54,873 bases of DNA from Candidatus Parcubacteria bacterium. GTDB taxonomy: Bacteria; Patescibacteriota; Patescibacteriia; Patescibacteriales; UBA12075. The notes beneath the pieces were generated by a model. The model ran no database searches, was not told the origin of the DNA, and worked only from the letters and a program-made list of their open reading frames with translations. Positions 4,847 through 52,763 of this stretch are shown in pieces. Position 1 is the stretch's first letter. Each line of letters opens with the position of its first letter. The stretch covers positions 1 through 54,873 of the forward strand of contig JAGLIO010000028.1 of the NCBI GenBank assembly GCA_023142915.1, written 5' to 3'. The translations under genes and the position numbers were made by a program.

Positions 4847-5977
4847 ATGAATAAAAAATACAAACTATCAGATTTTGATTATAATTTGCCAAAAGAATTA
4901 ATTGCTCAAAAACCGGCAACACCGCGAGATTATTCGTGGCTGCTTTTGTTAAAAAAAACAAGCGGCGAAATTATTCATAAGCGTTTTTATAATATAATTG
5001 ATTATTTTAAAAAAGGCGATGTTTTAGTGATGAATAATTCCAAAGTAATGCCTGCGCGCCTAATTGGAAAAAAAGAAACAGGAGGAAAAATGGAAGTTTT
5101 TTTGCATAAATTTGTTAAAAAAAATAATTGGCAGTGTTTAGTTGGCGGACGGGGAGCGCGGCAGGATTTAAAAATATTTTTTAGTGAAAATTTAGAATGT
5201 AAAATTTTGAAAAATAATAATGACGGTACTTGGGAGATAGAGTTTAATATGGAGTATGGCGAGATGATGAAAGTTGTAGAAAAAATCGGGCAAGTGCCGT
5301 TGCCGCCATATATAGATCGGAAATCGGATGTCGTAAATCTGATTTCGGATAAAGATGATTATCAAACTGTTTACGCGGATGATTCTAAGCTGGGGTCGGT
5401 GGCGGCGCCGACTGCCGGTTTGCATTTTACGCCGGAGTTATTGCGGAAATTGAAAAATAAGGGCGTGCAGATTGAATACGTAACTTTACATGTCGGGCTT
5501 GGAACTTTTGCGCCGGTTAAAATTGATGACGTTACTAAGCATAAAATGCACGCGGAGTTTGTTGAAATAAATGGCGAGGTTTTACAAAGAATTATTTTGG
5601 CAAAAGAAGAAGGAAGGCGGGTAATCGGCGTAGGAACAACATCGGTTAGAAGTTTGGAGGCGGTTTTTTCTTGTGCCGTGTATAAAAGATTTCTCACCTT
5701 CGCTGACGCTCCGGTTCGAAATGACAAAAAAGAGAAGACACTAGAGCAAAAATTATTAATGAAAGATTACCATGATTGGGTGGATATTTTTATTTATCCC
5801 GGCTATAAATTTAAAATCATTGACGCTATGATTACGAATTTTCATTTGCCAAAATCAACTTTATTAATGCTTGTGTCCGCTTTGGCAGGGAAAGAAAATA
5901 TTGACAAAGCTTACGAAAGCGCCATAAAAAATAAATACCGGTTTTACAGCTATGGCGACGCCATGTTTATTATTTGA
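4847..5977 (+). CDS. queA: S-adenosylmethionine:tRNA ribosyltransferase-isomerase
   Basis: LSDFDYNLPKELIAQKP, AAPTAGLHFT, GVGTTSVRSLE and RFYSYGDAMFI. Start placed at ATG 4847 rather than the TTG at 4793 in the ORF track. Confidence 0.9.
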   Translation: MNKKYKLSDFDYNLPKELIAQKPATPRDYSWLLLLKKTSGEIIHKRFYNIIDYFKKGDVLVMNNSKVMPARLIGKKETGGKMEVFLHKFVKKNNWQCLVGGRGARQDLKIFFSENLECKILKNNNDGTWEIEFNMEYGEMMKVVEKIGQVPLPPYIDRKSDVVNLISDKDDYQTVYADDSKLGSVAAPTAGLHFTPELLRKLKNKGVQIEYVTLHVGLGTFAPVKIDDVTKHKMHAEFVEINGEVLQRIILAKEEGRRVIGVGTTSVRSLEAVFSCAVYKRFLTFADAPVRNDKKEKTLEQKLLMKDYHDWVDIFIYPGYKFKIIDAMITNFHLPKSTLLMLVSALAGKENIDKAYESAIKNKYRFYSYGDAMFII

Positions 5978-9564: not shown

Positions 9565-10134
9565 TTATAAATATTTTAATATTTTTTTATCCATCCCCTT
9601 GTTATCAAATTTTTTTAAATATTTTTTTATCTTTTTTATGTTTAAATTTTTTAAATCCATTTCTTCAACATCAAATAAAACACATCCATTAAGAGACAAA
9701 TAAATCTGATCTAAAAAGGCTTTTTCAGGCTCGGCTATTAAAATAGAATTTATTTTTTTAAACCCCCAAAAATATTTTTCCTGGATTTGATGATAGCGTA
9801 TTACGGTATTGTTGATTTCATAGCTTTTGCAGCGTTTTATTGACGCCAAAGTAATAGCATGTGATTGCTGGCTTAAAATATTATAATAAGCAAGCGCCCA
9901 TTCAAAAGACAAATAGCTTGGCTTATAAATATCAATGCTGAATTTTTCCAAATCAACTCTTAGCGAATCAACCGCGTAATATCCGCGAATTAATCTTTTT
10001 AACTTGCCCTTTTTAACCAATCTGTTAATCGCGACTTTTAGGCTAGCTTCTCGCGTAGCTGATATTTTTTTAATATCATTAAAAGTAAAATAGCCTTTTG
10101 GTATTTTATTTAGTTTTTGAATTAATTTGTTCAT
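9565..10134 (-). CDS. AbiEi-like antitoxin / wHTH regulator (type IV TA)
   Basis: N-terminal wHTH-like FTFNDIKKI...AINRLVKKGKLKRLIRGYYAV. Paralogous to 17806-18402 (YKPSYLSFEWAL / AEPEKAFLD). Overlaps the NTase gene by 29 nt. Confidence 0.7.
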   Translation of the reverse strand: MNKLIQKLNKIPKGYFTFNDIKKISATREASLKVAINRLVKKGKLKRLIRGYYAVDSLRVDLEKFSIDIYKPSYLSFEWALAYYNILSQQSHAITLASIKRCKSYEINNTVIRYHQIQEKYFWGFKKINSILIAEPEKAFLDQIYLSLNGCVLFDVEEMDLKNLNIKKIKKYLKKFDNKGMDKKILKYL

Positions 10135-10801
10135 AAAGCTGCTCTATGATTTTATAATATTTTTTTGGCAAAAAAACTTGCAATTCATTTTTAAAATGCC
10201 TTTTTGTGTAATTCGCGATTTTATAATCAAAAATAAAATTTTTTCGCTGCAGTTTGGCAATATACCATAAATCAAAAATATCACGAGCTTTTTTTCTATC
10301 CAAAATCGCGGCTATTTTTAAATTTTTTAATTCATTCAAAGTCGGCACGAGCAGTAGCGGCGACAAAATACTAACAGGGCTTTTTATTAGAAGCAATTCG
10401 GTTTTTAATTTAAGTTTTTCTTTTGGTTTGCGGATTTCAATTTTCAATGAAAAATTATGTTTTAATTTTTTATCACTGACGTTAACTAAGCCAAACCAAG
10501 TATTTCGCTTATCTTTTATATCTTTTAATTTCCAATTATTATTTTCTTTTATGATTTTTCTTAAAAAATTTTCAAATTCAATATACTTTGCCGTTTTATT
10601 TAATATCAAATCAATATCCTCCGAATACCTTGGTGAATTATAAGCTAAGCGAAGCGCGGTTCCGCCGTAAAAAATGATTTTTGTTCCAAAATCATCATTA
10701 GCGAGCTTGTCCAAAAAAATCATTTCAGCCTCTTCCCTGATAATTTTATCAATGGAAATATCTAATTTTTTTTGATATTTATTTAATTCTTCCAAATTCA
10801 T
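10106..10801 (-). CDS. AbiEii/AbiGii-family nucleotidyltransferase toxin
   Basis: NTase motif IIFYGGTALRLAYNSPRYSEDIDL (DUF1814/AbiEii type). Confidence 0.8.
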   Translation of the reverse strand: MNLEELNKYQKKLDISIDKIIREEAEMIFLDKLANDDFGTKIIFYGGTALRLAYNSPRYSEDIDLILNKTAKYIEFENFLRKIIKENNNWKLKDIKDKRNTWFGLVNVSDKKLKHNFSLKIEIRKPKEKLKLKTELLLIKSPVSILSPLLLVPTLNELKNLKIAAILDRKKARDIFDLWYIAKLQRKNFIFDYKIANYTKRHFKNELQVFLPKKYYKIIEQLYEQINSKTK

Positions 10802-11016: not shown

Positions 11017-13677
11017 ATGTATTTGGAAAAATTAGAAATTCAAGGCTTTAAGTCTTTTGCAAATAAAAATACGCTTGTGTTTCCCGGCATGCTTGATGAG
11101 AGCAAACGGGGAATTACTGCCGTGGTCGGACCGAACGGTTCCGGCAAGTCTAATGTGGCTGATGCCGTGCGCTGGGCGCTGGGAGAGCAGAGCATGAAGA
11201 CTTTGCGCGGAAAAAAATCCGAAGATGTGATTTTTTCAGGCTCGGACAAAAAAGGAAAACTCGGTATGGCTGAGGTTTCTTTGCATTTGAATAATGAGAA
11301 TGGAGTTAAATCCGGCAAATCCCCGATTGAATATTCGCAAGTTGTTATTACCCGCCGTTTGTATCGCGATGGCGACAGCGGGTATATGATTAATAACAAT
11401 CGTGTCCGCTTGTCAGATATTCAAATGCTGCTCGCGCGCGCGAAATTCGGACAAAAAACTTATAGCGTAATCGGACAGGGCATGGTTGAAGGTTTTTTAA
11501 ATACTTCTTTGGCGGAACGCAAGGAATTTTTTGATGAAGCTACCGGAGTTAAGCAATATCAAATTAAGCGCGATGAATCCTTAAATAAGCTTAGATCAAG
11601 TTATGAAAATTTATCCCAAGCCCGCATGCTTTTGTCCGAAATTGAACCAAGGCTAAAAAGTTTGACCAGGCAAGTCAGCCGCCTGCATAAGCGAGGCGAG
11701 CTGGAAACGGAGTTAAAAAGCGCGCAAACAGATTATTATAGCCGGATTTGGCATGATATTAACGAAAAATTCAAGAATTATAATCATGAATACTTGGAAT
11801 TGGAAAAAATTAAATTTGTTAAAGAAAAAAAACTGGATAATTTAAATAAAGATTTAGAGCAGTTGAAAATTGAAAGCGAAAAGGAAAATGAATTTAATTC
11901 ATTGCAAAACGAATTGGGGCAGATTCAAGGAAAAAAAGACGAGTTAAACCGCGCCTTAGCCAAAATTGAAGCGCAAATGGAAACCAAGTTGGAGGCAAGC
12001 GGACAGCATGATTTGTCTTTTTTGTTTAATAAAAAAGAAGTAATTAATAAGGATTTGGAAAAAATAAGCGAAGAAGACGCGAATTTAAATTTAAGCATAA
12101 AGCAAGAACAGGAAAAAAATCAAAGCTTAAAATTCACAAAAGACAAAATTGATTCTGAAATCAAAAAAATAAGCAAAACTCTCTCAACAGAAGAGGAAAA
12201 CACGGAAGATGATAATATGAAAACCGCTAATGAAATGCTGCATAAAATATTAACGGATTTGGAAATAGCCGAGAGCATTACTGAATTTGAAAAAATCAAA
12301 GCCCTTACTTTAAGAATAAAAAAAGAGTTAAAAAAACTGAAAAATATTATTTTTAACAACGGCAATTTAAATAATCAAAATAATAAATTAAAAGAAGCGC
12401 AAATTGTTTTAAGCAAACTGTCGCAGGAAAAAGAAGAATTAATAAATAAAATTAATGAAAATAATCTTTTATTGTCAACAAAAACAGAAAGAATAAGATT
12501 GTTAAATGAAAAAAAACAAAGCCTTGCAAATGAATTATTAGAAATTGAAAAACGTTTGCAGCAGAATGAAAAAAAATCAGATTTTAAAGAATTGGGCAAA
12601 GAGCAGTCTGCTTTAAAAATGGAAATTGTTGCCGCGCAAGAGAATATTTTAATCATTAAAGAAAAAATAAGCAGCATCAGCGCGTCAGAAGAGGAAAAAC
12701 GCAATCGCCTTTTTTCTTTGCAAAAAAATTTACAGGAATTGCAGAGTGAATTAAATGACAGCAATAACAAAATGCAGTCAATAAAAATTAACGCAACTCG
12801 TTATGAAACGCGCTTGGAGGATTTGGAAATTGAGATTAGGCAGGAACTAAAAGATTTAAGCGCGATTAAAAATAAAAGCGGGGAAACAGGCGAAATTGAC
12901 AATGATTTTATTGCCGGACTTAAGGAAAAAATCAAACAGATTAAAAAACAGCTTGAGCTTATCGGCGGAATTGATCCGCAAACAGAGCACGAATACAATG
13001 AAACCAAAGAACGTTTTGATTTTTTAAATAATCAAGTAACGGATTTTAGTTCCGCGGTTGATTCTCTTAGAAAAATAATTAAAGAGCTTGACTCTGTAAT
13101 TAAAGAGCAGTTTGACAAAGAATTTAAGGTCATCGCGCAGAATTTTGAAAAATATTTTAAAATTTTATTTAACGGAGGCAAGGCAAAAATCGTAAAAGTT
13201 TTAGAAGAAGCAATGGATGAAGAAGAAGACACTAGCGAGAAGAATCAAGCAGGACAAAAATCGGAATTGGTTGCTTTGCCGGATATCAAAAAAATTAAAT
13301 TCTTGCAAAAGCATAACGCGACCGGCCTTGCCGGCATAGAAATTCAGGCTACTCCTCCTGGCAAAAAAATAGGATCAGTTTCAATGCTTTCCGGCGGCGA
13401 ACGCGCCTTAACCGCGATTGCCTTGATTTGCGCGATTATCAGCTCCAATCCATCTCCGTTTGTTGTTTTGGATGAAGTTGACGCGGCTTTGGACGAAGCA
13501 AATTCCGAGCGCCTCGCGAAAATTTTTGACGAGCTATCCCTTAAAACCCAATTTATAGTCATAACCCACAACCGCGCTTCAATGCGCCGCGCCAGCATTT
13601 TATACGGCGTAACAATGAGAGACGACGGAATTTCCAAGTTGTTGTCGGTTAAGTTGGATGAGGTTAAGGGGAGATAA
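11017..13677 (+). CDS. smc: chromosome segregation protein SMC, short form without a recognisable hinge domain
   Basis: Head motifs FKSF, VVGPNGSGKSNVADAVRWALGEQS, LSGGERALTAIAL and FVVLDEVDAALDEAN. 886 aa. The middle is continuous coiled-coil-like sequence. Confidence 0.85.
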   Translation: MYLEKLEIQGFKSFANKNTLVFPGMLDESKRGITAVVGPNGSGKSNVADAVRWALGEQSMKTLRGKKSEDVIFSGSDKKGKLGMAEVSLHLNNENGVKSGKSPIEYSQVVITRRLYRDGDSGYMINNNRVRLSDIQMLLARAKFGQKTYSVIGQGMVEGFLNTSLAERKEFFDEATGVKQYQIKRDESLNKLRSSYENLSQARMLLSEIEPRLKSLTRQVSRLHKRGELETELKSAQTDYYSRIWHDINEKFKNYNHEYLELEKIKFVKEKKLDNLNKDLEQLKIESEKENEFNSLQNELGQIQGKKDELNRALAKIEAQMETKLEASGQHDLSFLFNKKEVINKDLEKISEEDANLNLSIKQEQEKNQSLKFTKDKIDSEIKKISKTLSTEEENTEDDNMKTANEMLHKILTDLEIAESITEFEKIKALTLRIKKELKKLKNIIFNNGNLNNQNNKLKEAQIVLSKLSQEKEELINKINENNLLLSTKTERIRLLNEKKQSLANELLEIEKRLQQNEKKSDFKELGKEQSALKMEIVAAQENILIIKEKISSISASEEEKRNRLFSLQKNLQELQSELNDSNNKMQSIKINATRYETRLEDLEIEIRQELKDLSAIKNKSGETGEIDNDFIAGLKEKIKQIKKQLELIGGIDPQTEHEYNETKERFDFLNNQVTDFSSAVDSLRKIIKELDSVIKEQFDKEFKVIAQNFEKYFKILFNGGKAKIVKVLEEAMDEEEDTSEKNQAGQKSELVALPDIKKIKFLQKHNATGLAGIEIQATPPGKKIGSVSMLSGGERALTAIALICAIISSNPSPFVVLDEVDAALDEANSERLAKIFDELSLKTQFIVITHNRASMRRASILYGVTMRDDGISKLLSVKLDEVKGR

Positions 13678-13784
13678 ATTTTTAAGAGAAATATTTTCTA
13701 CTATCTGGTCTTTAACAGCCAGTTTTTTTATATCTTTTTTAATATGTTTTTAGCTAAAATTAAATAAAAAATAGCCAACCCTAC

Positions 13785-13813
13785 TTGACAAAATAATTAT
13801 TATGTGATATGTT
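13785..13813 (+). promoter_or_regulatory. sigma70-like promoter with extended -10 (TTGACA-N17-TGaTATGTT)
   Basis: ttgaca at 13785-13790 and tatgtt at 13808-13813, preceded by tga. It lies upstream of the ATG at 13889. Confidence 0.45.
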
Positions 13814-14067
13814 GAATTATTGAAATATTTTTTTGGTTGATTTTTTATCAAAAAGTGCTATTATTTAATGAGATATTAAAATCTTTATATGGATATTGGA
13901 AATAAAATACAATTAAATACAATTGAGCAACCTGCGAAAAAATACATTCTGATAATAAAAGCACCGAATTACATAATCAAGACGAAAAAATAACAGTATC
14001 ATTAGAAAAAATTAAAAAAGCGCGGGAAACAATTTTAAAAACATTTGGCATTGAATCGGATAAGAAT

Positions 14068-14967
14068 TTGGACGATTTTAATGAAATATTAGAAAGCGCA
14101 ACAAAATCTTTGCCAAAATATCAAGAAATAGAAAAAATGTTATCCTGCGTAGAAAAGCAAAAATTACCATACGAACTTTTTAAGATTTTAAAAAAAGAAG
14201 CTGATGTTAATATGCAAAATGATTTAAATATCCCGGAGGATGGAGCATTATTTGAATCAATGAAGCAAGGAATGCTTGAATGCGCCGGCAGAACCTTGGT
14301 CGCCTCTACTTTTTTTCAAGAACACAGCGTTGACCATGTTGCCGTTTCCGCGCCAGGACATTCTTTCCTAATTATTGAGCAGTCAGAAAAAACATTAATT
14401 TATTTTGATGTCAATAATAATTTATTTTTTACATTTTCGAGATCAGCGCTTAAGGGCTATGAAGGAATTAGCACATCAAAAGAATGCCAATTAAAAGAGT
14501 ACGCGCCGAGAAAAACTGATTTTTACGACGGAATTAATACGACATTTTCTCACTTTCTTGCTATGCCGGCAAAAGAGGCTATCGACCGCCAATATCTTGT
14601 CAATGTCGCGGCGGCGTTAAATGGAAATAAAGAATTTTCAAAATCCAATATTCAAGTTGATAAAGACGCGGCTGAAGCTGTTTTTCAAATTGAAAAAGAA
14701 ATTTATGGTGAAAATTTTGTTGCAGAAAACTTTTATTCAAAAATGGATAATCTTTTTGAATCGCAAAAACTACAAGAAGAGAATGATAAAAGAGTTATTA
14801 ACAAAATATTAAAAGAGCACCCAACACGTGATGAATTTATAAATTTTTTACCTACATTGCTTAGCGGAAACGCGGGAAATAGAGTGCCGTATGTTAAAAA
14901 TGCCTCGCTTGAACAGAAAAATTTTTTGCAAAAAAACTTTGGAATTTATTGCAAAAAGAAAATATAG
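14068..14967 (+). CDS. hypothetical protein (possible papain-like Cys-His core); N-terminus probably lies upstream across a frameshift
   Basis: 299-aa ORF starting at TTG. The frame is open back to 13927 with coding-like sequence. ATG 13889 is in the +1 neighbouring frame (see finding). ECAGRTLV...GHSFLII...YFDV. Confidence 0.5.
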   Translation: MDDFNEILESATKSLPKYQEIEKMLSCVEKQKLPYELFKILKKEADVNMQNDLNIPEDGALFESMKQGMLECAGRTLVASTFFQEHSVDHVAVSAPGHSFLIIEQSEKTLIYFDVNNNLFFTFSRSALKGYEGISTSKECQLKEYAPRKTDFYDGINTTFSHFLAMPAKEAIDRQYLVNVAAALNGNKEFSKSNIQVDKDAAEAVFQIEKEIYGENFVAENFYSKMDNLFESQKLQEENDKRVINKILKEHPTRDEFINFLPTLLSGNAGNRVPYVKNASLEQKNFLQKNFGIYCKKKI

Positions 14968-15111
14968 AGAAGAAATCCGAGTAGGAGAATAGGCAAAATT
15001 TTTTCAGAGTTTTTGGCTAGGCTTCAAGTTTAGGGTTAGTAAGTAGTTACATGCTTGCCTATTAACTGCATAATTATTATTTTAATAAAATAACTCAAAT
15101 GCTTTCTACGG

Positions 15112-15170
15112 GATTCCCGATCATTTAATATAATACTCTGCGGGGCTAATGTGTGTCGGGAATGACAAAA
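15112..15170 (-). repeat. 59-bp hairpin-forming repeat element, copy A (inverted relative to copy B)
   Basis: The reverse complement ttttgtcattcccgacac...gcagag...ttatattaaatgatcgggaatc aligns with 17162-17220 at roughly 80% identity by eye. Its own termini gattcccga/tcgggaatc are inverted repeats. Confidence 0.8.
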
Positions 15171-16622
15171 AATAAAATGCCAGAACAAAAAAGCAAAAAT
15201 CAAGTTGATATATTGTTTGTCAATCCGCCGGTTTCGCAAGAAGAGCGCTATGGCATAAAACTTAAAGCCGGAGGGCAAACTTTGCAGACGGGTTTAGCGG
15301 TTTTAGCCGCTATCACACGCGCAAAAGGATATAATACGCGCGTTTTGGACGCAACCGCCTTGGAATTAAGTTATGATGAAGCAGTTAACGAGATATGTAA
15401 AATCAATCCAAAGTATATCGGCATAACCGCGGTTACTATTTCCATATTTAACGCCGTAGAGATAATTAAGCGCCTAAGAGCTAAAAATAAAAACTATACA
15501 ATTTTTTTAGGCGGTTCGCATATTACCGCGGTTCCAAAAGAAACTTTTAAAAGATTTCAAGAAATTGAAATCGGCGTAATCGGCGAGGGAGATATAACGG
15601 TTTTGGAATTAATTAAAGCTTGCGATGATAATGAGGATTTAAGCAAGATAAAAGGCTTGGTTTTTAGGCGCGGTAAAGAGTTGATAATTACGGAAGCGCG
15701 TGAGCCTTTTATGGATTTGGATTCTTTGCCAATGCCTGCATGGGATTTGTTCCCGAACATTGCTGAATATTATTATCCTCCCGCTCATACGGTTAAAAGA
15801 TTGCCAGCGACGGTGTTAATTACATCCAGAGGCTGTCCGGGAATGTGCACTTATTGCGATAATAAAGTTTTTGGCCGCCGCCTGCGCTGTTACTCCGCCG
15901 GTTATGTAATAAAAATGATAAGGCATTTGCAAAAAGAATACGGGATGCGGGAAATTCAGTTTCGGGATGATAATTTTCTTGTTTTCAAGGACAGGCTTAA
16001 AGAATTATGCAATCGTATTATTGATGAAAAAATTGATATAGTTTGGAGTTGCGCCGGGCGAGTTGACATGATAAATGAAGAGATGTTGGAGCTTATGAAA
16101 AAAGCGGGATGCTGGCAGATTTGGTACGGGGTTGAATCCGGCAGCCAAAAAGTTTTAGACACGATTAAGAAAAATACAAGTCCTGAAAAAATTAGAAACG
16201 CGATCAATTTGACAAAAGAGGCCGGCATTTCACCTTGCGGATTTTTCATGATCGGCATGCCGAATGAAACCGAAGAAGATATTAAGATGACAATAGATTT
16301 GTTGCTTGAGCTGCCATTGGATGAATTTCATATGACGCATTTAACGCCTTTGCCAGGCTCGGAAATACACGCGACCGCGCGCGATTACGGCGAGTTTGAA
16401 AATGATTGGAAAAAAATGAGCGTTTGGTCAACTATTTTTGTGCCCAAAGGCTTAAGCAAAGAAAAATTAACCTATTATTCAAATTTGGCGTTTAAAAAAT
16501 TTTATTTCCGCCCGAGAATAATTTGGCAATATTTATTAAAAATAAGATCACCTCGCCATCTATCTGTATATTTCAAGGCGTTTTTAGCTTTAATTTCTTA
16601 TGTTACGCAAAAAAAGAGATAA
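15162..16622 (+). CDS. B12-binding-domain (class B) radical SAM protein
   Basis: N-terminal Rossmann-like B12 domain (ILFVNPP, IGITAV, FLGGSHIT). Radical SAM motif ITSRGCPGMCTYCDN. C-terminal FYFRPR. Start at ATG 15162 (track: GTG 15153). Confidence 0.85.
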   Translation: MTKNKMPEQKSKNQVDILFVNPPVSQEERYGIKLKAGGQTLQTGLAVLAAITRAKGYNTRVLDATALELSYDEAVNEICKINPKYIGITAVTISIFNAVEIIKRLRAKNKNYTIFLGGSHITAVPKETFKRFQEIEIGVIGEGDITVLELIKACDDNEDLSKIKGLVFRRGKELIITEAREPFMDLDSLPMPAWDLFPNIAEYYYPPAHTVKRLPATVLITSRGCPGMCTYCDNKVFGRRLRCYSAGYVIKMIRHLQKEYGMREIQFRDDNFLVFKDRLKELCNRIIDEKIDIVWSCAGRVDMINEEMLELMKKAGCWQIWYGVESGSQKVLDTIKKNTSPEKIRNAINLTKEAGISPCGFFMIGMPNETEEDIKMTIDLLLELPLDEFHMTHLTPLPGSEIHATARDYGEFENDWKKMSVWSTIFVPKGLSKEKLTYYSNLAFKKFYFRPRIIWQYLLKIRSPRHLSVYFKAFLALISYVTQKKR

Positions 16623-16639
16623 TTATTAATTCAAAATAT

Positions 16640-17227
16640 ATGAACAAAAAAGAATTTACAATTGTATTATTAGTGTTGGTAGTTTTCGGCGTTATGTATC
16701 GCTTATTGGATTATCCGCCGAATTTTACTCCAATCGCGGCAATCAGCTTGTTTGCCGGTTATTATTTTAGAAGCAAATGGGTTTTTATATTGCCTTTGTT
16801 AATTTTGTTTTTAAGTGATATAATGATAGGGTTTTATGATTTTAAAATTATGCTCGCGGTTTATTTATGTTTCGCGATAATTCCTTTTTTAGGATTTTTA
16901 ATTAAAGGAAAAAACAAAACAGGCAAGACTATTTTTGCTTCGCTATCAGGCTCAATTTTATTTTTCGTAATCACAAATTTCGCGGTATGGTTTTTTGGAA
17001 GCTGGTATAGCCATGACTTCAGCGGTTTAATTAGCTGTTACACAATGGCAATCCCATTTTTCCGCAATACCTTAACAGGCGATTTATTTTTCAGCGGAGT
17101 AGTTTTCGGAAGCTTCGCGCTTTATCAGGTTTTCGCGGCAAAATTAATGGATAACCCTCACTTTTGTCATTCTCGACACTCCCAGCCTCGCAGAGAAATT
17201 ATATTAAATGATCGGGAATCTCTTTAA
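16640..17227 (+). CDS. small polytopic membrane protein, DUF6580-like putative (vitamin) transporter
   Basis: About 5-6 TM segments. YPPNFTPIAAISLFAGYYF and CYTMAIPFFRNTL motifs as I recall them for DUF6580 (unverified). Start at ATG 16640. The last 21 codons are encoded by repeat copy B. Confidence 0.65.
   Translation: MNKKEFTIVLLVLVVFGVMYRLLDYPPNFTPIAAISLFAGYYFRSKWVFILPLLILFLSDIMIGFYDFKIMLAVYLCFAIIPFLGFLIKGKNKTGKTIFASLSGSILFFVITNFAVWFFGSWYSHDFSGLISCYTMAIPFFRNTLTGDLFFSGVVFGSFALYQVFAAKLMDNPHFCHSRHSQPRREIILNDRESL
17162..17220 (+). repeat. 59-bp hairpin-forming repeat element, copy B
   Basis: See copy A. It forms the 3' end of the membrane-protein ORF (FCHSRHSQPRREIILNDRES). Confidence 0.8.
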
Positions 17228-17256
17228 AAGATACGAATATAAAATAATCCACAAAG

Positions 17257-17712
17257 ATGAAAAAAAAATATATCTATTATGAAAAAATTCTTTTTATACT
17301 AATAATTATATTAGTATTAACCGGCTGTACAACAGTTAAAACAAATTTGGTTTTACAAAATCCAAAAGAGCTTGGCGTTGAAGAGGAAGCCAAAGAAATT
17401 TTAGTAACTTTAAAAATTAACAACGGACAAGACGAAAAAGTTTTTGAACATAATATTCAAAAAGGAAAAACAGCGTTTGATTTAATGAAAGAATTGCAAA
17501 CTAAAGGCAGCATTGAATTTGTTTATGAGGAAAGCAATGTCGGGGTATTTGTTAATAGCATTAATAACATTGAAAATAACGTAAGTGATAATATTTTTTG
17601 GATGTTTTATGTAAACGATAAAATGGCAGGCGTTGGAATCGGCGCTTATGATTTGCAGAATGGAGATGTGGTAGAATGGAAATATATTAATACTGAAAAT
17701 ATAGATTTTTAG
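17257..17712 (+). CDS. lipoprotein with DUF4430 / transcobalamin-like C-terminal domain
   Basis: Lipobox LVLTGC. DUF4430-type motif IFWMFYVNDKMAGVGIGAYDLQNGDVVEWKY. Confidence 0.75.
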   Translation: MKKKYIYYEKILFILIIILVLTGCTTVKTNLVLQNPKELGVEEEAKEILVTLKINNGQDEKVFEHNIQKGKTAFDLMKELQTKGSIEFVYEESNVGVFVNSINNIENNVSDNIFWMFYVNDKMAGVGIGAYDLQNGDVVEWKYINTENIDF

Positions 17713-17734
17713 TACTTTGTTAATAATCAGTAGA

Positions 17735-17763
17735 TTGACGCTTTATTGAATATTTGGTATGAT
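17735..17763 (+). promoter_or_regulatory. sigma70-like promoter with extended -10 (TTGACG-N17-TGgTATGAT) for the second AbiE pair
   Basis: ttgacg at 17735-17740 and tatgat at 17758-17763. The palindrome atgata-N6-tatcat (17759-17776) overlaps the -10. Confidence 0.45.
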
Positions 17764-17805
17764 AATTTCATATCATTTTTTTATTAAAAATAATAAAAAA
17801 AGCAA

Positions 17806-18402
17806 ATGAAATTTTTTGATATAATAGACAATATCAAACAGCCTATTTTTTCTTTGCATGATCTTAGGATGGCTAAGATTAATATATTTCCTTATCAAAT
17901 GACCAAGTGGACAAAAGATGGGCATCTGATTAAGATTAGGAACGGTTTGTATGCAATCGCGGATAAAAAGGATCAGCTGAACATGGAAATGATATCCCAT
18001 CTTTTGTATGAACCAAGCTATATCAGCTTGGAAAGAGCATTGTCAAAGTACGGTTTGATTCCGGAGATGGTTTACAATTCTACCGCAATAACCACCAGGC
18101 AAACCAAAACCTTTCAGAATGAATTCGGATCTTTTATGTATCGGAGTATAAAGAAAGATTTATTTTTTGGTTTTAAGAAAATAAAAGAAATGGGCGGAGT
18201 ATATTTATTGGCAGAGCCGGAAAAAGCGCTTCTGGATTATTTTTATTTGAATTCCGCGCGGATTAATGATTTGCATGATGTATCTGAATTAAGATTAAAT
18301 AAAGCGGTTATTAGGGGTTTGGATAAAAAAAAGTTAAAAAAATATTTAAAAGTATTTAGGAGTAAAAAATTGGAACAGATATGCTTACTTTTGAACAAAT
18401 AA
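17806..18402 (+). CDS. AbiEi-like antitoxin / wHTH regulator
   Basis: FSLHDLRMA...WTKDGHLIKIRNGLYAI and YEPSYISLERAL...LAEPEKALLD. Overlaps the downstream NTase gene by 22 nt. Confidence 0.7.
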   Translation: MKFFDIIDNIKQPIFSLHDLRMAKINIFPYQMTKWTKDGHLIKIRNGLYAIADKKDQLNMEMISHLLYEPSYISLERALSKYGLIPEMVYNSTAITTRQTKTFQNEFGSFMYRSIKKDLFFGFKKIKEMGGVYLLAEPEKALLDYFYLNSARINDLHDVSELRLNKAVIRGLDKKKLKKYLKVFRSKKLEQICLLLNK

Positions 18403-19157
18403 AAAAATATTATTCTGCAGAGCTGTTAATGAAGAGCCCCAAGGCCGTTTTGGTGGAGTATTTGCAATATGAATTATTGGATTCCATATTTCAGCAGACC
18501 GGCAGCGAATATCTCAGCTTTATCGGCGGAACAGCTATCCGCATAGTGTATAACAGTTCTCGGTTTTCAGAAGATATTGATTTTGACAATTTCGGGCTGA
18601 CTTTTGAGGATTTTGAGATTTTACTTAAAAGGGCTGTTGCTAATATGGAAGACAAGGGCTTTGACCTGGAGTTTAGGCTGATAGAAAAAGGCGCTTATCA
18701 TTGTTTTATAAAATTTCCTCAGATTTTATCAGCAAACGGATTGCCGCAGCAGCCAGGCGAAAAGATATTGGTGCGAGTGGATGCTGTGCGCAAGGAAAAA
18801 TTGTTTGAACCAAAACAGCATATACTGGATAGTTTCGCCGTGTACCGAAGAATATTGGTAAACGCGCCGGATATAATTTTATCGCAAAAGATTATTGCCA
18901 TTTTAGAAAGAAAGCGAGCCAAGGGGCGCGATTTTTATGACGTGTCGTTCCTCTTGGGGTTGGGCGATCCAAACTTTGAATATCTTGAGAAAATGAAAGG
19001 AATAAAAAGGAGTAATCTATTATCCGCGCTTTTAAAAAGAATTGACGAGTTGGATATGCCGTTGCTCGTTAAGGATGTCTTGCCTTTTTTGCAAAAACCT
19101 TCCGATCAGGAGCGGATATTGAGTTTTCGGGAGTATGTTAAGCAGAGATTGAAATAA
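18381..19157 (+). CDS. AbiEii/AbiGii-family nucleotidyltransferase toxin
   Basis: LSFIGGTAIRIVYNSSRFSEDIDFD and C-terminal KGRDFYDV. Confidence 0.8.
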   Translation: MLTFEQIKKYYSAELLMKSPKAVLVEYLQYELLDSIFQQTGSEYLSFIGGTAIRIVYNSSRFSEDIDFDNFGLTFEDFEILLKRAVANMEDKGFDLEFRLIEKGAYHCFIKFPQILSANGLPQQPGEKILVRVDAVRKEKLFEPKQHILDSFAVYRRILVNAPDIILSQKIIAILERKRAKGRDFYDVSFLLGLGDPNFEYLEKMKGIKRSNLLSALLKRIDELDMPLLVKDVLPFLQKPSDQERILSFREYVKQRLK

Positions 19158-20360: not shown

Positions 20361-21809
20361 ATGATTAATACTGATAATAAATTAGATTGCTTATTAATTT
20401 CTCCGCCGATTTTTTATAGCGAGAGCGATAATATATGGACAAAAGTTAATTCAAATTTTCCGCCATTAGGACTAGCGTCTATCGCGGCTTATGTGCGCAG
20501 TAAAAATTTCAGTGTTAGGATGATTGATTGCAATATTGAATCGCCGGCTGTTGAAAATTTTGAAACATTTTTTATTAAAAATTTTGTTAATAAATATAAA
20601 GATATAAGAGTAATCGGTTTGACCGCGATGACGCCTACAATAAAAAAGGCTTACCAAATAGCGCGGATATGTAAAAATTTTTATTCTGGCGCGTTGATTG
20701 TGTTTGGCGGGGTTCATCCGACCTTTGTGACAAAAGAAGTAATAAGCAAGCCGTTTATAGATATAGCTGTAATTGGAGAAGGGGAGCAGACATTTTTGGA
20801 AATTATAAAGCAAAAAGAATTAAAAAGCATAGACGGGATAGCATATAAAAATGGAAAAAATAAAAACGAGATAATTATTAATCAACCAAGAGCAAGAATT
20901 ATAGATTTGGATAAATTGCCAATGCCGGCTTATGATCTATTGCCGATTTTAAAATATAGGCCTGCAAAAGGCTCTTATAAGAGGCTGCCGGCAATGGCTA
21001 TGATGACATCGCGAGGCTGTCCCGGGCGATGCACTTTTTGCGCGAAAACTTTGGGCTTGCAATTATTTTTTAAATCAGCTAAAAAAATTTTTAAAGAAAT
21101 AAAATATTTAGTTAATAATTATGGAATAAAAGAAATACTTTTTTATGACGATACATTTACGGTTCACAAAAAAAATGTTATTGAATTATGTAATTTATTA
21201 TTAGCAAATAATATTGATATAACTTGGACTTGTTTTGCAAGAGTTGATTTTGTGGATGAAGAAATGCTTTATAAAATGAAAAAGGCCGGCTGTCATCAGA
21301 TAATGTACGGTGTTGAGAATATTGATCAAAGCGTACTCAAAAATATTAAAAAACAAATAAATATTAAGCAAGTTTTTAATGCGGTTAAGTTTACAAAAAA
21401 AGCCAAAATTGAATGCCGGCTTGCTTTTATGGTTGGCAATCCCGGAGATAGCGTGGAAATCGTAAAGAAAAATATTAAAGTTATTAAAAAATTAGATCCT
21501 GATTTGTTAATAGTAAATATAACTACTCCTTTTCCCGGTACGGAAATGTTTGAATGGGCTGATAAAAAAGGCTTGATTTTAAGTTATAATTGGGATGATT
21601 ATGATTTGGCAAATCCTGTCATGAGGCTTGAAGACATGAACGTGGAAGAAATTAAGAATTTATATAAAATCATGTATAGCAGTTTTTATTTTCGTCCCAG
21701 ATTTATTTTTAAAAAAATATTCAGCATCAGATCGTGCGAGGATTTTAAGGTTTTGTTCAGCGGTTTTACCGCGCTATTATCATTTTTTGCAATAAAAATT
21801 AAAAAATAA
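20361..21809 (+). CDS. B12-binding-domain (class B) radical SAM protein
   Basis: LLISPP, GLTAMTP, VFGGVHPT, MTSRGCPGRCTFCAK and FYFRPRF. Paralog of 15162-16622. Confidence 0.85.
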   Translation: MINTDNKLDCLLISPPIFYSESDNIWTKVNSNFPPLGLASIAAYVRSKNFSVRMIDCNIESPAVENFETFFIKNFVNKYKDIRVIGLTAMTPTIKKAYQIARICKNFYSGALIVFGGVHPTFVTKEVISKPFIDIAVIGEGEQTFLEIIKQKELKSIDGIAYKNGKNKNEIIINQPRARIIDLDKLPMPAYDLLPILKYRPAKGSYKRLPAMAMMTSRGCPGRCTFCAKTLGLQLFFKSAKKIFKEIKYLVNNYGIKEILFYDDTFTVHKKNVIELCNLLLANNIDITWTCFARVDFVDEEMLYKMKKAGCHQIMYGVENIDQSVLKNIKKQINIKQVFNAVKFTKKAKIECRLAFMVGNPGDSVEIVKKNIKVIKKLDPDLLIVNITTPFPGTEMFEWADKKGLILSYNWDDYDLANPVMRLEDMNVEEIKNLYKIMYSSFYFRPRFIFKKIFSIRSCEDFKVLFSGFTALLSFFAIKIKK

Positions 21810-24705: not shown

Positions 24706-26169
24706 ATGGCAAATGTCTGTTTAATATATCCAAGAGATATAAATTTAAATTTTTTTCCTTTAGGGCTGGGCTATATAGCTTCTTTTTTAAAGCAAAAAGG
24801 GCATAATGTAATCTTTCTTGATTTATCTGAAAAAGATTTTTATTTATTAAAAGATCCAAAGGTTTTTAACGCTGATATTGTCGGTATTAGTATTACAACT
24901 CCGCAATTGGGAATGTCAGAAAAGATAATAAAAATTTTAAAATCCATGAATTCTAAGCTGCCAATTTCGGTCGGCGGAATACATCCTTCTTTTTTTAAAG
25001 ATAAATTTCTTAAAGATTATAAAGATGTTGATTATGTCGTATATGGAGAGGGCGAGGAAACTACGCGAGAGCTTTGCGATTATATAGACGGAAAAATTAA
25101 AGATATAAATATGATTGACGGTTTAATATTCAGGATGAACGAAAAAATAATTATTAATAAGCCAAGAGAGATGATCTCTGATTTAAATTCTTTGCCTTTT
25201 CCGGCAAGAGAGCTGGTTAATTATGAAACTTATTTAAAGCCGCCAGGCTTGATTAGGGGAATATGGACTAAGCGAAGCGCCAATATTAGCACAAGCAGAG
25301 GATGTCCAGGAAGATGCACGTATTGCGGTGTGAATTATATATTTAATAGAAGCTATCGGCGAAGAAGCACGGACAATGTAATTTCAGAGATTGATTTTTT
25401 AGTGCGAGAATATAATATTGACGGTCTTTATTTTATGGATGATACATTTTTAATGAATACTGAATGGATTGAAGAATTTACAAAAAAATTTATTGCGAAA
25501 AAATATAATATAACTTGGTCTTGTTATGGAAGAGTGGATACCGTAAATGAGCGCATTTTAAAAGCAATTAAAAAAGCAGGCTGTGTCCAAGTTGAATATG
25601 GAATTGAATCCGGTTCCAAAGGAGTTCTTAAAAGAATACAAAAAAATACTGACATAGACAAAATAAAGCAGGCAATTAAAATGACAAAGGAGAATAAACT
25701 AAGGGCGCTTGGTTCTTTTATTTTCGGTTTTGTTGAAGATACGGAAGAGGATTTACAGGAATCAATTGATTTAGCCAGAGAATTAAATTTGGATTTTAGC
25801 GCCGCTTTTTTCGCCACTCCTTATCCGGCATCGGAAATTTACAAACAAGCCGTTTTAGAAGATAGAATCATAGAAAAAGATTTGTCAAAATGGTATGTGA
25901 GAAATAATAATATTTGGAGAGTTAATCTCAGTAAAGAAGCCATAACAAAGTATCGCAATAAATTTTTAAAAGAGACCAGGTTTAATAATCTCACCTTCTT
26001 TTTAAAAGACCCAAAGCTGTTTTTTAACCTGATTTTTTTTGTTATAAAAAATTATGACGCGATTTTTAAAGCGATTAAGCAATCTTTTAAAGCGCGCTCT
26101 TTTGATGATATAGGTTATTATTTTTATACTTATTTATCAAAAGATTTAGAAATTAGAAATAAAATATGA
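24706..26169 (+). CDS. B12-binding-domain (class B) radical SAM protein
   Basis: VCLIYP, VGISITTP, SVGGIHPS and STSRGCPGRCTYCGV. Confidence 0.85.
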   Translation: MANVCLIYPRDINLNFFPLGLGYIASFLKQKGHNVIFLDLSEKDFYLLKDPKVFNADIVGISITTPQLGMSEKIIKILKSMNSKLPISVGGIHPSFFKDKFLKDYKDVDYVVYGEGEETTRELCDYIDGKIKDINMIDGLIFRMNEKIIINKPREMISDLNSLPFPARELVNYETYLKPPGLIRGIWTKRSANISTSRGCPGRCTYCGVNYIFNRSYRRRSTDNVISEIDFLVREYNIDGLYFMDDTFLMNTEWIEEFTKKFIAKKYNITWSCYGRVDTVNERILKAIKKAGCVQVEYGIESGSKGVLKRIQKNTDIDKIKQAIKMTKENKLRALGSFIFGFVEDTEEDLQESIDLARELNLDFSAAFFATPYPASEIYKQAVLEDRIIEKDLSKWYVRNNNIWRVNLSKEAITKYRNKFLKETRFNNLTFFLKDPKLFFNLIFFVIKNYDAIFKAIKQSFKARSFDDIGYYFYTYLSKDLEIRNKI

Positions 26170-49900: not shown

Positions 49901-50165
49901 TCCGGAATTTATTGAAGATAAATTTGAATTGCCAGAAGATGTGAGAGCGGTTTTTGAGGATGTTTTGAACGGCTTATTAAATTCAGACATAACTTTGGTG
50001 CAATCGGCTGTAAATAGTTTTACGGAGGAAGTTGATTCCAAAAAAGATGAGAAAATATTAAAAAACGCAGAAAAGAAATTGGAAAAAGCTGATCAATTAT
50101 TGCATGATGAAAAAATACAAGTTGTGCAGTTTTGCCAACAGGCGTGGAGAGCGGTTAATTTTTAA
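46980..50165 (+). CDS. secreted LamG-like lectin + calcineurin-like metallophosphoesterase protein with a long uncharacterised C-terminal region
   Basis: Signal/anchor FLLIPISGIFLFFFGLNVDYVSA. LamG_3-type FDGSIDEVRIYNRVLSEEEIDELY. MPE motifs FVHMTDPHIG, GGDLVEY, VPGNHD and LTGHTHRAEV. Confidence 0.8.
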   Translation: MPRASKFLLIPISGIFLFFFGLNVDYVSASLSDGLVGHWNLDNGETIDYSGRGNNLINNNAISAKGVFGIDDTAFDFENANSSYLYIADDDYNGLDVVGDMSVSTWVNFKSLPNSRYVIVAKYNENIAERSYFYSLQNDGMEFKLQAILSADGVGNTVHLLSPSHLMATSTWYHFIWVYNSTERTVNFFVDGINIGEASGAPNSLYNSNVTFQIGGYARKWPAFYFDGSIDEVRIYNRVLSEEEIDELYNQFNSPPQPEDFSFVHMTDPHIGSSWIPGHKWYEELSYPRFTDGLYEIGQLEEKPDFILMGGDLVEYAESRWLGDYQSMIDSFTAQTSIPVYAVPGNHDRYMWATGSALCGLSDGFNCDDKLAEYKNQINIPGQGLDENNYLNPDNPLDYRFTHKGIQFIGLDTGADYIPDFEIRDLFVKVSGDKGIEGDGLTDEQMSALENLDLETPKIIFMHHPVLSGGKDYCYDSECPQSVLEDASFVNNYDEFFNWAVSSNLQLALTGHTHRAEVYDEHDRQYDNIAKAKKRPLFIQTQSATHDSSIDHGYRLVDVESGAVNPQNASSTKNYIKLISQLETESNHEFRLYDSEDDLKYVKVGDIDGLSAPFFIASSSKRILLYGLDENRIKLQVWQKDVNDKNFGLNTKIEGVVLDDVDYENDFGYRIGNIFKRDFVNFHLENKLAMLNVKNISFEDSNKYQFAINWDDLIETEDINNLEVMNDFDQNSGEILQLKKLKYSIIAKLFSPAELVIIDNDTGSSTGIVNHGSIEEIDYSLSDEARERVLIYDGEDLAGKNFIYRVRGLEDIYGSGDNDFSLKIVYRIDDENEEEIKEVNIIGMPINASTTYQFYVDWENLSDTGGVIMEIDEDGDGIFEIRVELGQEINSDNPYCLRIKMIFDLEEELGTQADEKINFIIGLIKKSINPEWWDGEHKLNQENGDNVFKTDLITVQKLRLFLRLDSVFSDKKYIPEFIEDKFELPEDVRAVFEDVLNGLLNSDITLVQSAVNSFTEEVDSKKDEKILKNAEKKLEKADQLLHDEKIQVVQFCQQAWRAVNF

Positions 50166-50232
50166 AATATATTGCATATTTTTTTAATTTAATATATTAT
50201 TATATTAAGCTTATATTGGTAAGCCTAAAAAA

Positions 50233-50329
50233 CTATAATTTTCCGAAGCGAGGTGAAAATCCTCCGCTGTCCCGCAGCTGTGATGTTTGTCTACAATAGA
50301 CAAGCTAAGCCAGAACGAGTTGATTATAG
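50233..50329 (+). promoter_or_regulatory. cobalamin riboswitch aptamer (short, AdoCbl-variant/class II-like)
   Basis: Closing helix ctataat/attatag. Core GAAGCGAGGTGAAAATCCTCCGCTGTCCCGCAGCTGTGA (50245-50283). 9-bp hairpin at 50285-50305. AGCCAG B12-box start at 50308. Confidence 0.75.
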
Positions 50330-50425
50330 CTTAATTAATTAATAAAACTCTTCGAGGATTGAGAGTTGGTTTTTAAACTAATTAGTTTCAAGCCATCTTT
50401 CCCTTTTTTAGAGGGAATTTTTTTT

Positions 50426-52250: not shown

Positions 52251-52763
52251 ATGAAAAAATTATTGTTAAATTTATTACTGATTATCAGCATATTGCTGCC
52301 GTTTTTTGGCGCGCGCGCGGCTGGTGTCAGCGTAAAACCTAAAGAATTAAATGTTAACGCGCAATTTGGAAAGGTTGTTGAAGCGGCGGTTTTGATAACA
52401 AATGTCGGAGATGAACCAGTGCTTTATCAAGTATATTCGGATTTATATCAAAAAAATATAGTTATCAGCCCAACTGATTTTCAATTGGAAGCAGGCGGCA
52501 GTCGGGAAGTAGCGATAAAAACGAAAATGTGGCGGAACGGAAAGTACGATTTTAATTTGTCAGTTGTCGCTCGTCCTTTAAATGCTTCCGGCTTGATAGC
52601 GGCTACGGGCGTTAAAATACCGATCAAACTCACTGTTTCAGGATGGTATTTTTGGGGTTTAGCCGCGCTAATGCTGTTTGTTGTTTTTGTGATAATTTTT
52701 CACCTCCCCATCTGCCGAAAAACCGTAGCGATTGTTTTTAGAAAAATCGCAAAGTCAAGGTAG
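52251..52763 (+). CDS. secreted beta-sandwich protein with C-terminal TM anchor, hypothetical
   Basis: Signal peptide LLLNLLLIISILLPFFGARAAG and C-terminal TM GLAALMLFVVFVIIF. Resembles the C-terminal domain of the upstream protein in pattern only. Confidence 0.6.
   Translation: MKKLLLNLLLIISILLPFFGARAAGVSVKPKELNVNAQFGKVVEAAVLITNVGDEPVLYQVYSDLYQKNIVISPTDFQLEAGGSREVAIKTKMWRNGKYDFNLSVVARPLNASGLIAATGVKIPIKLTVSGWYFWGLAALMLFVVFVIIFHLPICRKTVAIVFRKIAKSR

Follow-up and report, generated by a model that had tools for sequence, protein, structure and literature searches.

Among the genes encoded in a 54,873-nt stretch of DNA from a Candidatus Parcubacteria bacterium (contig JAGLIO010000028.1 of assembly GCA_023142915.1; hereafter the window) are a small membrane protein of the DUF6580 family and a DUF4430 lipoprotein, which, in our proposal, make up the half of an uptake system for corrinoid (vitamin B12) that lies closest to the membrane, a reading to which we give a probability of roughly 0.78. 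The two genes follow that of a class B radical S-adenosylmethionine (SAM) enzyme, a presumed consumer of B12, and form with it three consecutive plus-strand open reading frames (ORFs; Table 1) separated by gaps of 17 and 29 nt. Both the ORF list and independent gene calling on a 135.8-kb ENA metagenome scaffold containing the window, which returned identical products of 486, 195 and 151 aa, confirm the tightly spaced arrangement described in an earlier note on this DNA, and Pfam bears out the family that it gave to each of the three proteins. The note also suggested that the pair may be a minimal import route. As a complete minimal system this did not hold up, since the two genes correspond to the rear half of a conserved operon of four genes; its front half lies at 50.2-52.8 kb in the same window, behind a cobalamin riboswitch (50200-50338) that had been missed and that precedes the gene for a 616-aa transcobalamin-like protein.

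The window has a G+C content of about 31% and its relatives are Patescibacteria. The radical SAM enzyme matches PF02310 (E 2.6e-17, residues 34-150) and PF04055 (E 1.7e-27, residues 220-381) and contains the CxxxCxxC motif as CPGMCTYC, which together identify it as class B; its nearest NCBIfam models, BchE and HpnJ, both score far under their cut-offs. As the importer pair sits directly behind this gene, importer and consumer are probably co-transcribed in this lineage. A scan of the intergenic gaps found no terminator-like site between the three genes, and promoter and terminator scans were uninformative in DNA as AT-rich as that of the window.

Family and predicted fold of the DUF6580 protein

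The 195-aa protein matches PF20221 with 172.8 bits (cut-off 27, E 8.5e-51) over profile positions 5-156 of 162, and the motifs YPPNFTPIAAISLFAG and AIPFFRNTL that had been quoted for it are present in its translation. The family is a large one, with 6,563 clusters at 50% identity (E <= 1e-3), and carries the NCBI label 'putative transport protein'; no mention of DUF6580 was found in the literature searched. A scan of GTDB representative genomes places its hosts in the Patescibacteria, Bacteroidota, Ignavibacteria and Verrucomicrobia.

A single-sequence phmmer search of the PDB with the window protein gave no match. An alignment of 39 homologues (A1) was used as a profile against the PDB, for hhalign and for an AlphaFold2 (AF2) model, and the sole PDB match of the profile is the 182-aa chain 6fnp_A (E 0.0057) of ECF-CbrT, the vitamin B12 energy-coupling factor (ECF) transporter of Lactobacillus delbrueckii (PMC5997447). 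The matched fragment scores as PF12822 (ECF_trnsprt), and on the strength of this match and of the chain length we take 6fnp_A to be the CbrT S-component. Aligned by hhalign with the same fragment, A1 gives a probability of 84.5% (E 7e-6) across helix 1, loop 1 and helices 2-3, including an R...P-N-x-x-P motif in loop 1 that is common to DUF6580 and CbrT. One family member (P0012) passes the PF12822 model in its own right, with 32.9 bits against a cut-off of 30.7, and a second (P0041) also matches it; the window protein has no Pfam match to PF12822 or PF07155 at E <= 0.01.

The AF2 model (predicted local distance difference test score, pLDDT, 89.6) is a six- to seven-helix bundle for which the PDB entry ranked first by Foldseek is that of hydroxycobalamin-bound BtuM (8ovv; template modelling (TM) score 0.58/0.63, probability 1.0). 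FolT, ThiT and the S chain of 4huq come next, the TM scores of this group, BtuM included, being 0.45-0.67 and the probabilities 0.98-1.0; RibU then follows at a probability of 0.72, and the remaining matches are noise. The modelled protein therefore shows the S-component fold and, given the CbrT profile match together with the Foldseek matches of the model, DUF6580 is predicted to belong, as a divergent family, to the structural class of ECF S-components. In structure and in sequence it comes closest to the two known S-component-type B12 carriers, BtuM and CbrT. The protein had been described as a small permease in a pairing that is not known to be an established transporter; we likewise found no description of the pairing, but the permease itself has kin, as a distant S-component for which CbrT and BtuM are precedents.

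Over 196 aligned family sequences the residues R21, N28, D60, F108, N113, Y123, P139 and F140 are invariant. Position 133 is Cys in 71% and Ser in 24% of the sequences, and no Cys is invariant. At codon 25 (16712-16714 in the window), within the loop-1 motif R-L-L-P-H-P-x-N-F, 92% of the members have His.

The lipoprotein and its transcobalamin-like domain

The 151-aa product of the third gene matches PF14478 with 75.5 bits (cut-off 23.8, E 4.4e-21). It begins with a signal peptide, MKKKYIYYEKILFILIIILVLTG-C24, with the lipobox LVLTGC that had been pointed out before, making Cys24 the predicted lipidation site; this residue is conserved in at least 90% of 11 aligned sequences. Close homologues are few, only nine having been found, and a profile built from these nine matches the beta domains of intrinsic factor (E 8.6e-6), haptocorrin and transcobalamin. 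In the AF2 model the core (approximately residues 46-148) is confident, mostly with pLDDT above 90, and residues 25-43, which link Cys24 to the beta domain, are predicted to be disordered. All of the top 19 Foldseek matches are transcobalamin, intrinsic factor, haptocorrin or the DUF4430 structure 3u7z, and the model superposes on 5np4, according to its PDB title an isolated human beta domain with bound cyanocobalamin, with a TM score of 0.84 and a root-mean-square deviation of 2.2 A. The PF14478 match and the predicted beta-grasp fold both place the protein in the DUF4430/transcobalamin-like clade, and as modelled it is a single transcobalamin beta domain, with a putative lipid tether to the membrane.

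A natural fusion of the two families is seen in P0007, where DUF6580 is followed by an extra transmembrane helix and then by DUF4430; if the C-terminus of DUF6580 is cytoplasmic, as in BtuM and other solved S-components, the extra helix would put the DUF4430 domain outside the cell. No further fusion was found among the best 150 representatives. The 372-aa P0159 was considered as one and rejected, since its N-terminal extension lacks DUF4430 and may be an artefact.

Genomic context of DUF6580 genes

The GTDB scan yielded at least 585 DUF6580 loci, of which the best 80, from species-level genomes, were analysed, their ORFs being marked by purpose-built hidden Markov models (HMMs) of DUF6580 and DUF4430. 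The DUF4430 HMM was spot-checked with Pfam, which did not confirm one 130-aa ORF flagged in L004. As to the co-occurrence of the two families, put forward earlier as a check on the proposal, DUF4430 genes lie beside DUF6580 in 33 of the 42 loci labelled Patescibacteria, where the usual order on one strand is a small DUF4430 gene, a gene for a 600-900 aa protein combining a toroid with DUF4430, in some cases another small DUF4430 gene, and DUF6580. The small DUF4430 proteins are predicted to have a membrane tether, which in most of them is an N-terminal helix and in a few a lipobox.

A further 12 records are labelled 'uncultured Gammaproteobacteria', 'uncultured Rickettsiales' or 'bacterium', and eight of them have the DUF4430 operon type; we regard the labels of all 12 as doubtful. 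Nine records (L009, L013, L018, L026, L031, L036, L038, L055 and L063) are third-party annotation (TPA) metagenome-assembled genomes titled 'uncultured Gammaproteobacteria', with a G+C content of 35-43%, and their DUF6580 proteins group among those of Patescibacteria. They carry a Patescibacteria-type DUF4430/DUF6580 operon all the same, and the Gammaproteobacteria labels look unreliable.

The 26 loci from Bacteroidota, Ignavibacteria and Verrucomicrobia have no DUF4430, and here DUF6580 comes after a TonB-dependent receptor. In Ignavibacteria the order is riboswitch, TonB-dependent receptor, DUF6580 and MetH, a full-length B12-dependent methionine synthase following DUF6580 in L041 and L077. 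In Verrucomicrobia it is riboswitch, TonB-dependent receptor, a 240-aa gene, DUF6580 and a BtuF-like periplasmic binding protein. The 240-aa gene is a Diphthami_syn_2 protein (PF01902, ATP pyrophosphatase-like), found at 5266-5988 in L033 and 5247-5981 in L070 and also in L043 and L076.

These contexts bear on how a DUF6580 protein would be energised. It could be a group II S-component that docks, like CbrT, on a shared EcfT/EcfA/EcfA' module encoded elsewhere in the genome, an arrangement that we regard as unlikely but as deserving serious consideration. CbrT, the only sequence-level relative with a solved structure, does work with an ECF module, and there are DUF6580 family members that match PF12822; Rodionov reportedly found in 2009 that group II S-component genes are typically scattered away from the module. 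Against docking, an ABC-ATPase-like gene (ABC, ATP-binding cassette) occurs in the DUF6580 operon in none of the 80 loci and within 6 kb in only two, in both on the opposite strand, and in the window, as annotated outside approximately 1-6.6 kb, no ABC, ECF or cob genes were called, in agreement with the previous observation that no BtuFCD, BtuB or ECF-CbrT genes are visible. In addition, many hosts are Gram-negative (Ignavibacteria, Bacteroidota and Verrucomicrobia), among which ECF modules are uncommon (PMC6072759), and BtuM, which ranks first among the structural matches, is a solitary carrier. Taken together, the local evidence and the occurrence in Gram-negative hosts speak more for a solitary carrier than for an ECF-dependent one. 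We tentatively suggest, at something close to an even chance, that DUF6580 adds to CbrT and BtuM a third, independent family of B12 carriers of the S-component type, working without an ECF module and obtaining its substrate from tethered transcobalamin-like proteins in Patescibacteria and as the inner-membrane partner of a BtuB-type receptor in Gram-negative bacteria.

Riboswitch linkage

At the Rfam gathering threshold a cobalamin or adenosylcobalamin (AdoCbl) riboswitch was found in seven of the first 12 loci and in 11 of 14 more; a permissive Rfam search of five loci placed L008 above the threshold and L011 and L014 just below it (about 28 bits against 31.5), and overall the gathering score was reached in 19 of the 27 related loci tested. 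With eight Rfam hits as its seed, an nhmmer profile recovered 48 elements at first and 57 by the third round, namely the seed copy from the window and 56 elements in 53 of the 80 loci. All lie on the strand of DUF6580, and 52 of the 56 are upstream of it, most of them heading its operon. Two Bacteroidota loci have nhmmer elements on both sides of DUF6580 (5777-5925 and 6521-6728 in L034, 5790-5920 and 6521-6679 in L042), the upstream one 46-81 nt before the gene and the other just downstream, heading the next gene, and on this ground DUF6580 appears there to be a single-gene unit with a riboswitch of its own. In L004, L024, L027, L028 and L029 the riboswitch was found by the nhmmer profile only. 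As the riboswitches of Patescibacteria score near or below the gathering thresholds, Rfam-based surveys probably under-count B12 regulation in this group. In comparative genomics, linkage to such elements, as predicted here, classically marks a gene for B12 uptake.

A split operon in the window

The sole riboswitch that Rfam finds in the window stands directly upstream of the gene for the 616-aa protein, which has a signal peptide, an alpha/alpha toroid, a DUF4430 beta domain and immunoglobulin (Ig)-like domains, and which is followed by the gene for a 170-aa anchored protein (Table 1). Orthologues of the 616-aa protein (E 1e-127 to 1e-196) are encoded by the first operon gene in L008, L010, L011, L018, L014 and L025, and homologues of the 170-aa protein (E 1e-17 to 3e-24), of 184-204 aa, by the second gene in L008, L010, L011 and L018, whose operons run riboswitch, ~600-aa gene, ~190-aa gene, small DUF4430 gene, DUF6580. 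Because the window genes at 50366 and 52251 are orthologues of the first and second canonical genes, the gene order indicates that this genome has split the canonical four-gene operon, the front half keeping the riboswitch and the back half having moved behind the radical SAM gene. The order within the relocated half is inverted, DUF6580 preceding DUF4430 in the window. The riboswitch operon of the window is present as well on a contig of the metagenome-assembled genome GCA_030632665.1.

Proposed mechanism and points against it

The role in corrinoid uptake that the earlier note suggested is backed by the predicted S-component fold, the CbrT match, the riboswitches and the TonB/MetH and DUF4430 contexts. 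From the folds, family memberships, conserved gene order and riboswitch linkage we infer the following sequence of binding, hand-over and transport. Corrinoid would be caught outside the cell by the riboswitch-controlled 616-aa protein and its 170-aa anchored partner, and also by the small lipoprotein, whose beta domain, anchored on the outside of the membrane, would present it to DUF6580. The latter would bind it in a pocket under extracytoplasmic loop 1 (R-x3-H-P-x-N-F-x-P) and bring it to the inside by toppling in the membrane, as has been proposed for S-components. Inside, B12-dependent enzymes would trap the corrinoid, here presumably the three class B radical SAM enzymes of a glycan/lipid cluster.

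Several points weigh against this proposal. The structural likeness of DUF6580 to BtuM is moderate (TM score about 0.6, Foldseek E 0.015) and in sequence the family is weakly linked to CbrT. At position 25, Tyr takes the place of His in the window protein and its closest relatives, and if His25 is a cobalt ligand then this sub-lineage binds corrinoid differently. No riboswitch was found upstream of the three-gene unit in a permissive Rfam search of 13600-18000 (E <= 5); six of the 27 Rfam-tested loci gave nothing, and the count of 53 loci with riboswitch-like elements rests partly on an iterated nhmmer profile. The fusion P0007 is a single case on a 1.9-kb contig that may be an assembly or frameshift artefact, and because it is one short contig we give it little weight as support. 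The literature searched yielded no experiment on binding or transport by any DUF6580 or bacterial DUF4430 protein. Lastly, it is well established that B12 riboswitches control cobalt and cobinamide transporters as well, so that they do not fix the exact substrate.

This last point raises the question of whether something else is imported, be it cobinamide or another incomplete corrinoid, cobalt, or a tetrapyrrole such as haem. We think this improbable, and cobalt or haem seem unlikely in view of the gene contexts: DUF6580 shares an operon with MetH and a TonB-dependent receptor, and the partner protein has a beta domain of the cobalamin-binding type of transcobalamin and intrinsic factor. No cob/cbi genes are present in the annotated parts of the window. 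Import of cobalt or of an early precursor would moreover be pointless in a cell that cannot finish the cofactor, as is generally expected of Patescibacteria. Cobinamide could nevertheless fall within the substrate range, as ECF-CbrT and BtuCDF import it besides B12 (PMC6593275). On the side of haem, a preprint on Lactobacillus sakei in which transcobalamin-like proteins are mentioned deals, according to its title, with haem uptake by an ECF-like system.

Neighbouring genes, close relatives and repeats

The order radical SAM, DUF6580, DUF4430 recurs in the closest relative, L084, whose DUF6580 protein is 82% identical and where two SPASM radical SAM genes and a glycosyltransferase gene follow, so that the neighbourhood, whose conservation had been put forward for checking, is kept in this relative. 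The DUF6580-DUF4430 pair of L081 lies within a glycan cluster with two class B radical SAM genes 2.6 kb off, and in L086 DUF6580 comes after glycosyltransferases. The proposed importer is encoded next to a presumed consumer in the window and in L084, which is not a general property: apart from the close relatives, a class B radical SAM gene lies within ~4 kb of DUF6580 in only four of the 80 loci (L015, L037, L002 and L011), for which reason we dropped co-encoding with a consumer as a property of the family. As far as gene order tells, the radical SAM adjacency is specific to the lineage of the window.

The three class B radical SAM genes of the window (starting at 15162, 20361 and 24706) are part of a glycan/lipid biosynthesis cluster of ~35 kb. 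The region 19160-46801 is a large surface-glycan or lipid cluster with two class B and two SPASM radical SAM enzymes, many SAM methyltransferases, GT1/GT2/GT4 and PMT_2 glycosyltransferases, a DegT aminotransferase, a Polysacc_synt flippase, GtrA and an FrhB/FdhB-like protein, and its radical chemistry is an unusually heavy outlay for a small genome. In this lineage the pair is embedded among glycosyltransferases, methyltransferases and radical SAM enzymes and, as said, no riboswitch precedes it in the window; it might accordingly serve the glycan/lipid pathway, in product export or anchoring, with its adjacency to a B12 enzyme being incidental. We consider this very improbable, given that elsewhere the pair occurs in riboswitch operons with transcobalamin-like proteins and without glycan genes, that DUF6580 in Gram-negative bacteria accompanies a TonB receptor and MetH, and that both predicted folds point to the binding or transport of a B12-related small ligand.

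Two copies of a ~70-nt repeat, inverted relative to one another, flank the radical SAM and DUF6580 genes and occur nowhere else in the window. The DUF6580 tail ...FCHSRHSQPRREIILNDRESL, which relatives lack, is encoded by copy B, and L084 has two tandem copies of the repeat at the equivalent place. The repeat is not called a terminator or attenuator, since its folding shows no advantage over that of shuffled sequence (z = 0.38). It may represent a small mobile or recombination element tied to the relocation of the genes. Two AbiEi-like/AbiEii toxin-antitoxin pairs are present, at 17806-19157 (+) and 9565-10801 (-). The former lies between the lipoprotein gene and a SPASM radical SAM gene and looks like an insertion into the cluster, as these two genes are adjacent in L084. 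Upstream of the riboswitch, 46980-50165 (+) encodes a secreted protein of 1061 aa in which LamG and calcineurin-like phosphoesterase domains are combined; the gene ends 35 nt before the aptamer.

Table 1. Positions of the genes discussed, the riboswitch and the repeats in the window
Feature	Position	Strand	Basis and remarks
Class B radical SAM enzyme, 486 aa	15162..16622	+	PF02310 + PF04055; first gene of the unit; presumed B12 consumer
DUF6580 membrane protein, 195 aa	16640..17227	+	PF20221, AF2/Foldseek; proposed corrinoid translocator
DUF4430 lipoprotein, 151 aa	17257..17712	+	PF14478, lipobox; proposed membrane-tethered corrinoid binder
Cobalamin riboswitch aptamer	50200..50338	+	Rfam RF00174, 38.2 bits against a gathering score of 31.5
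Secreted/surface transcobalamin-like protein, 616 aa	50366..52216	+	Pfam DUF4430, Prenyltrans, SQHop_cyclase
170-aa protein with signal peptide, Ig-like domain and C-terminal membrane anchor	52251..52763	+	Pfam Ig-like matches weak
Second class B radical SAM enzyme, further B12 consumer	20361..21809	+	PF02310 + PF04055
Third class B radical SAM enzyme, further B12 consumer	24706..26169	+	PF02310 + PF04055; phmmer E 1.8e-74 to the first radical SAM enzyme
Repeat copy A, ~70 nt	15102..15170	-	Inverted relative to copy B
Repeat copy B, ~70 nt	17162..17230	+	Gives the last ~20 codons and the stop of the DUF6580 ORF

Significance

Most bacteria that require B12 cannot make it. The importers named in recent papers are BtuCDF, ECF-CbrT, BtuM and Rv1819c/BacA (including PMC6593275); BtuCDF is found in about half of B12 auxotrophs (PMC6072759), and the importer of the remaining auxotrophs is an open problem (PMC6593275). 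The riboswitch, receptor, MetH and transcobalamin-like contexts give the large DUF6580 family a specific, testable substrate and offer a plausible answer to the question of B12 import in Patescibacteria and in several Gram-negative lineages. Such a system would explain how the very small genomes of Patescibacteria supply the cofactor for many class B radical SAM enzymes, and would provide a simple model in bacteria of how a transcobalamin-type domain passes B12 on to a membrane carrier. Should DUF6580 be a third carrier family, it would, in cells that lack an outer membrane, give bacteria a counterpart of the transcobalamin relay, and the ~6,500 clusters of the family (50% identity) would account for B12 uptake in many lineages for which no importer is known. 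The components resemble known kinds, S-component carriers and the transcobalamin-like scavengers predicted in 2007. DUF6580 and the transcobalamin-like lipoprotein most likely form an uptake system of a type for which no description was found in the literature searched, where nothing relevant turned up either on Patescibacteria with a cobalamin riboswitch or an ECF transporter or on an S-component with a cobalamin riboswitch.

Comparison with known systems

BtuM of Thiobacillus denitrificans (6FFV, 8OVV), a solitary S-component-like B12 transporter, resembles DUF6580 in its size of ~20 kDa, its six helices and its S-component fold. As with BtuM genes (PMC6072759), the DUF6580 genes of Gram-negative bacteria co-localise with a TonB-dependent (BtuB-type) receptor, and like BtuM the DUF6580 operons of the 80 loci come without an ECF module. 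BtuM is, however, defined by an invariant, essential, cobalt-ligating Cys80 (PMC6072759), which has no counterpart in the 196 DUF6580 sequences, and the BtuM chains (6FFV, 8OVV) are not matched by a DUF6580 single sequence or profile at E up to 10. With no invariant Cys and no sequence similarity, membership of DUF6580 in the BtuM family was rejected. The two also differ in distribution, BtuM being mainly proteobacterial, and in that BtuM lacks the extracytoplasmic binding-protein partner of the proposed DUF6580 system.

The B12-specific ECF-CbrT (6FNP) has in common with DUF6580 the loop-1 motif and the proposed class of substrate. CbrT belongs to PF12822 and needs EcfT, EcfA and EcfA', whereas DUF6580 is a separate Pfam family with no module nearby in the 80 loci. 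The window protein was not accepted as a member of a CbrT subgroup, as it has no PF12822 match and no linked module and the homology is distant only.

The extracytoplasmic components have a precedent in the bacterial transcobalamin-like SLBB/DUF4430 surface proteins that Burroughs et al. predicted in 2007 to scavenge B12 (PMC1796856). These have a beta domain that is sometimes fused to a toroid and often occur as paralogous pairs in one operon, in hosts without B12 synthesis, a description that the 616-aa and 151-aa proteins of the window fit. In the operons of 2007 an ECF module is encoded alongside, in the form of a CbiO-like ATPase and a CbiQ-like membrane protein (PMC1796856), whereas here DUF6580 alone is the membrane partner.

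The BtuBFCD system of Bacteroides with BtuG, BtuH and BtuJ follows the same logic, with surface lipoproteins that relay cobamides under riboswitch control (PMC13616437), but its protein families are unrelated (a beta-propeller in BtuG, a jelly-roll DUF4465 domain in BtuJ) and it operates with an outer membrane and an inner-membrane ABC importer. BtuH and BtuJ were considered as DUF4430 proteins and rejected, their fold, a DUF4465 jelly roll, being unrelated. Closer in structure are human transcobalamin, intrinsic factor and haptocorrin, whose beta domain resembles that of the lipoprotein and whose full architecture of toroid and beta domain resembles that of the 616-aa protein. The lipoprotein differs from these in having no alpha domain and in being, as predicted, lipid-anchored, and it would deliver its corrinoid to a membrane carrier, whereas the human proteins deliver theirs to an endocytic receptor.

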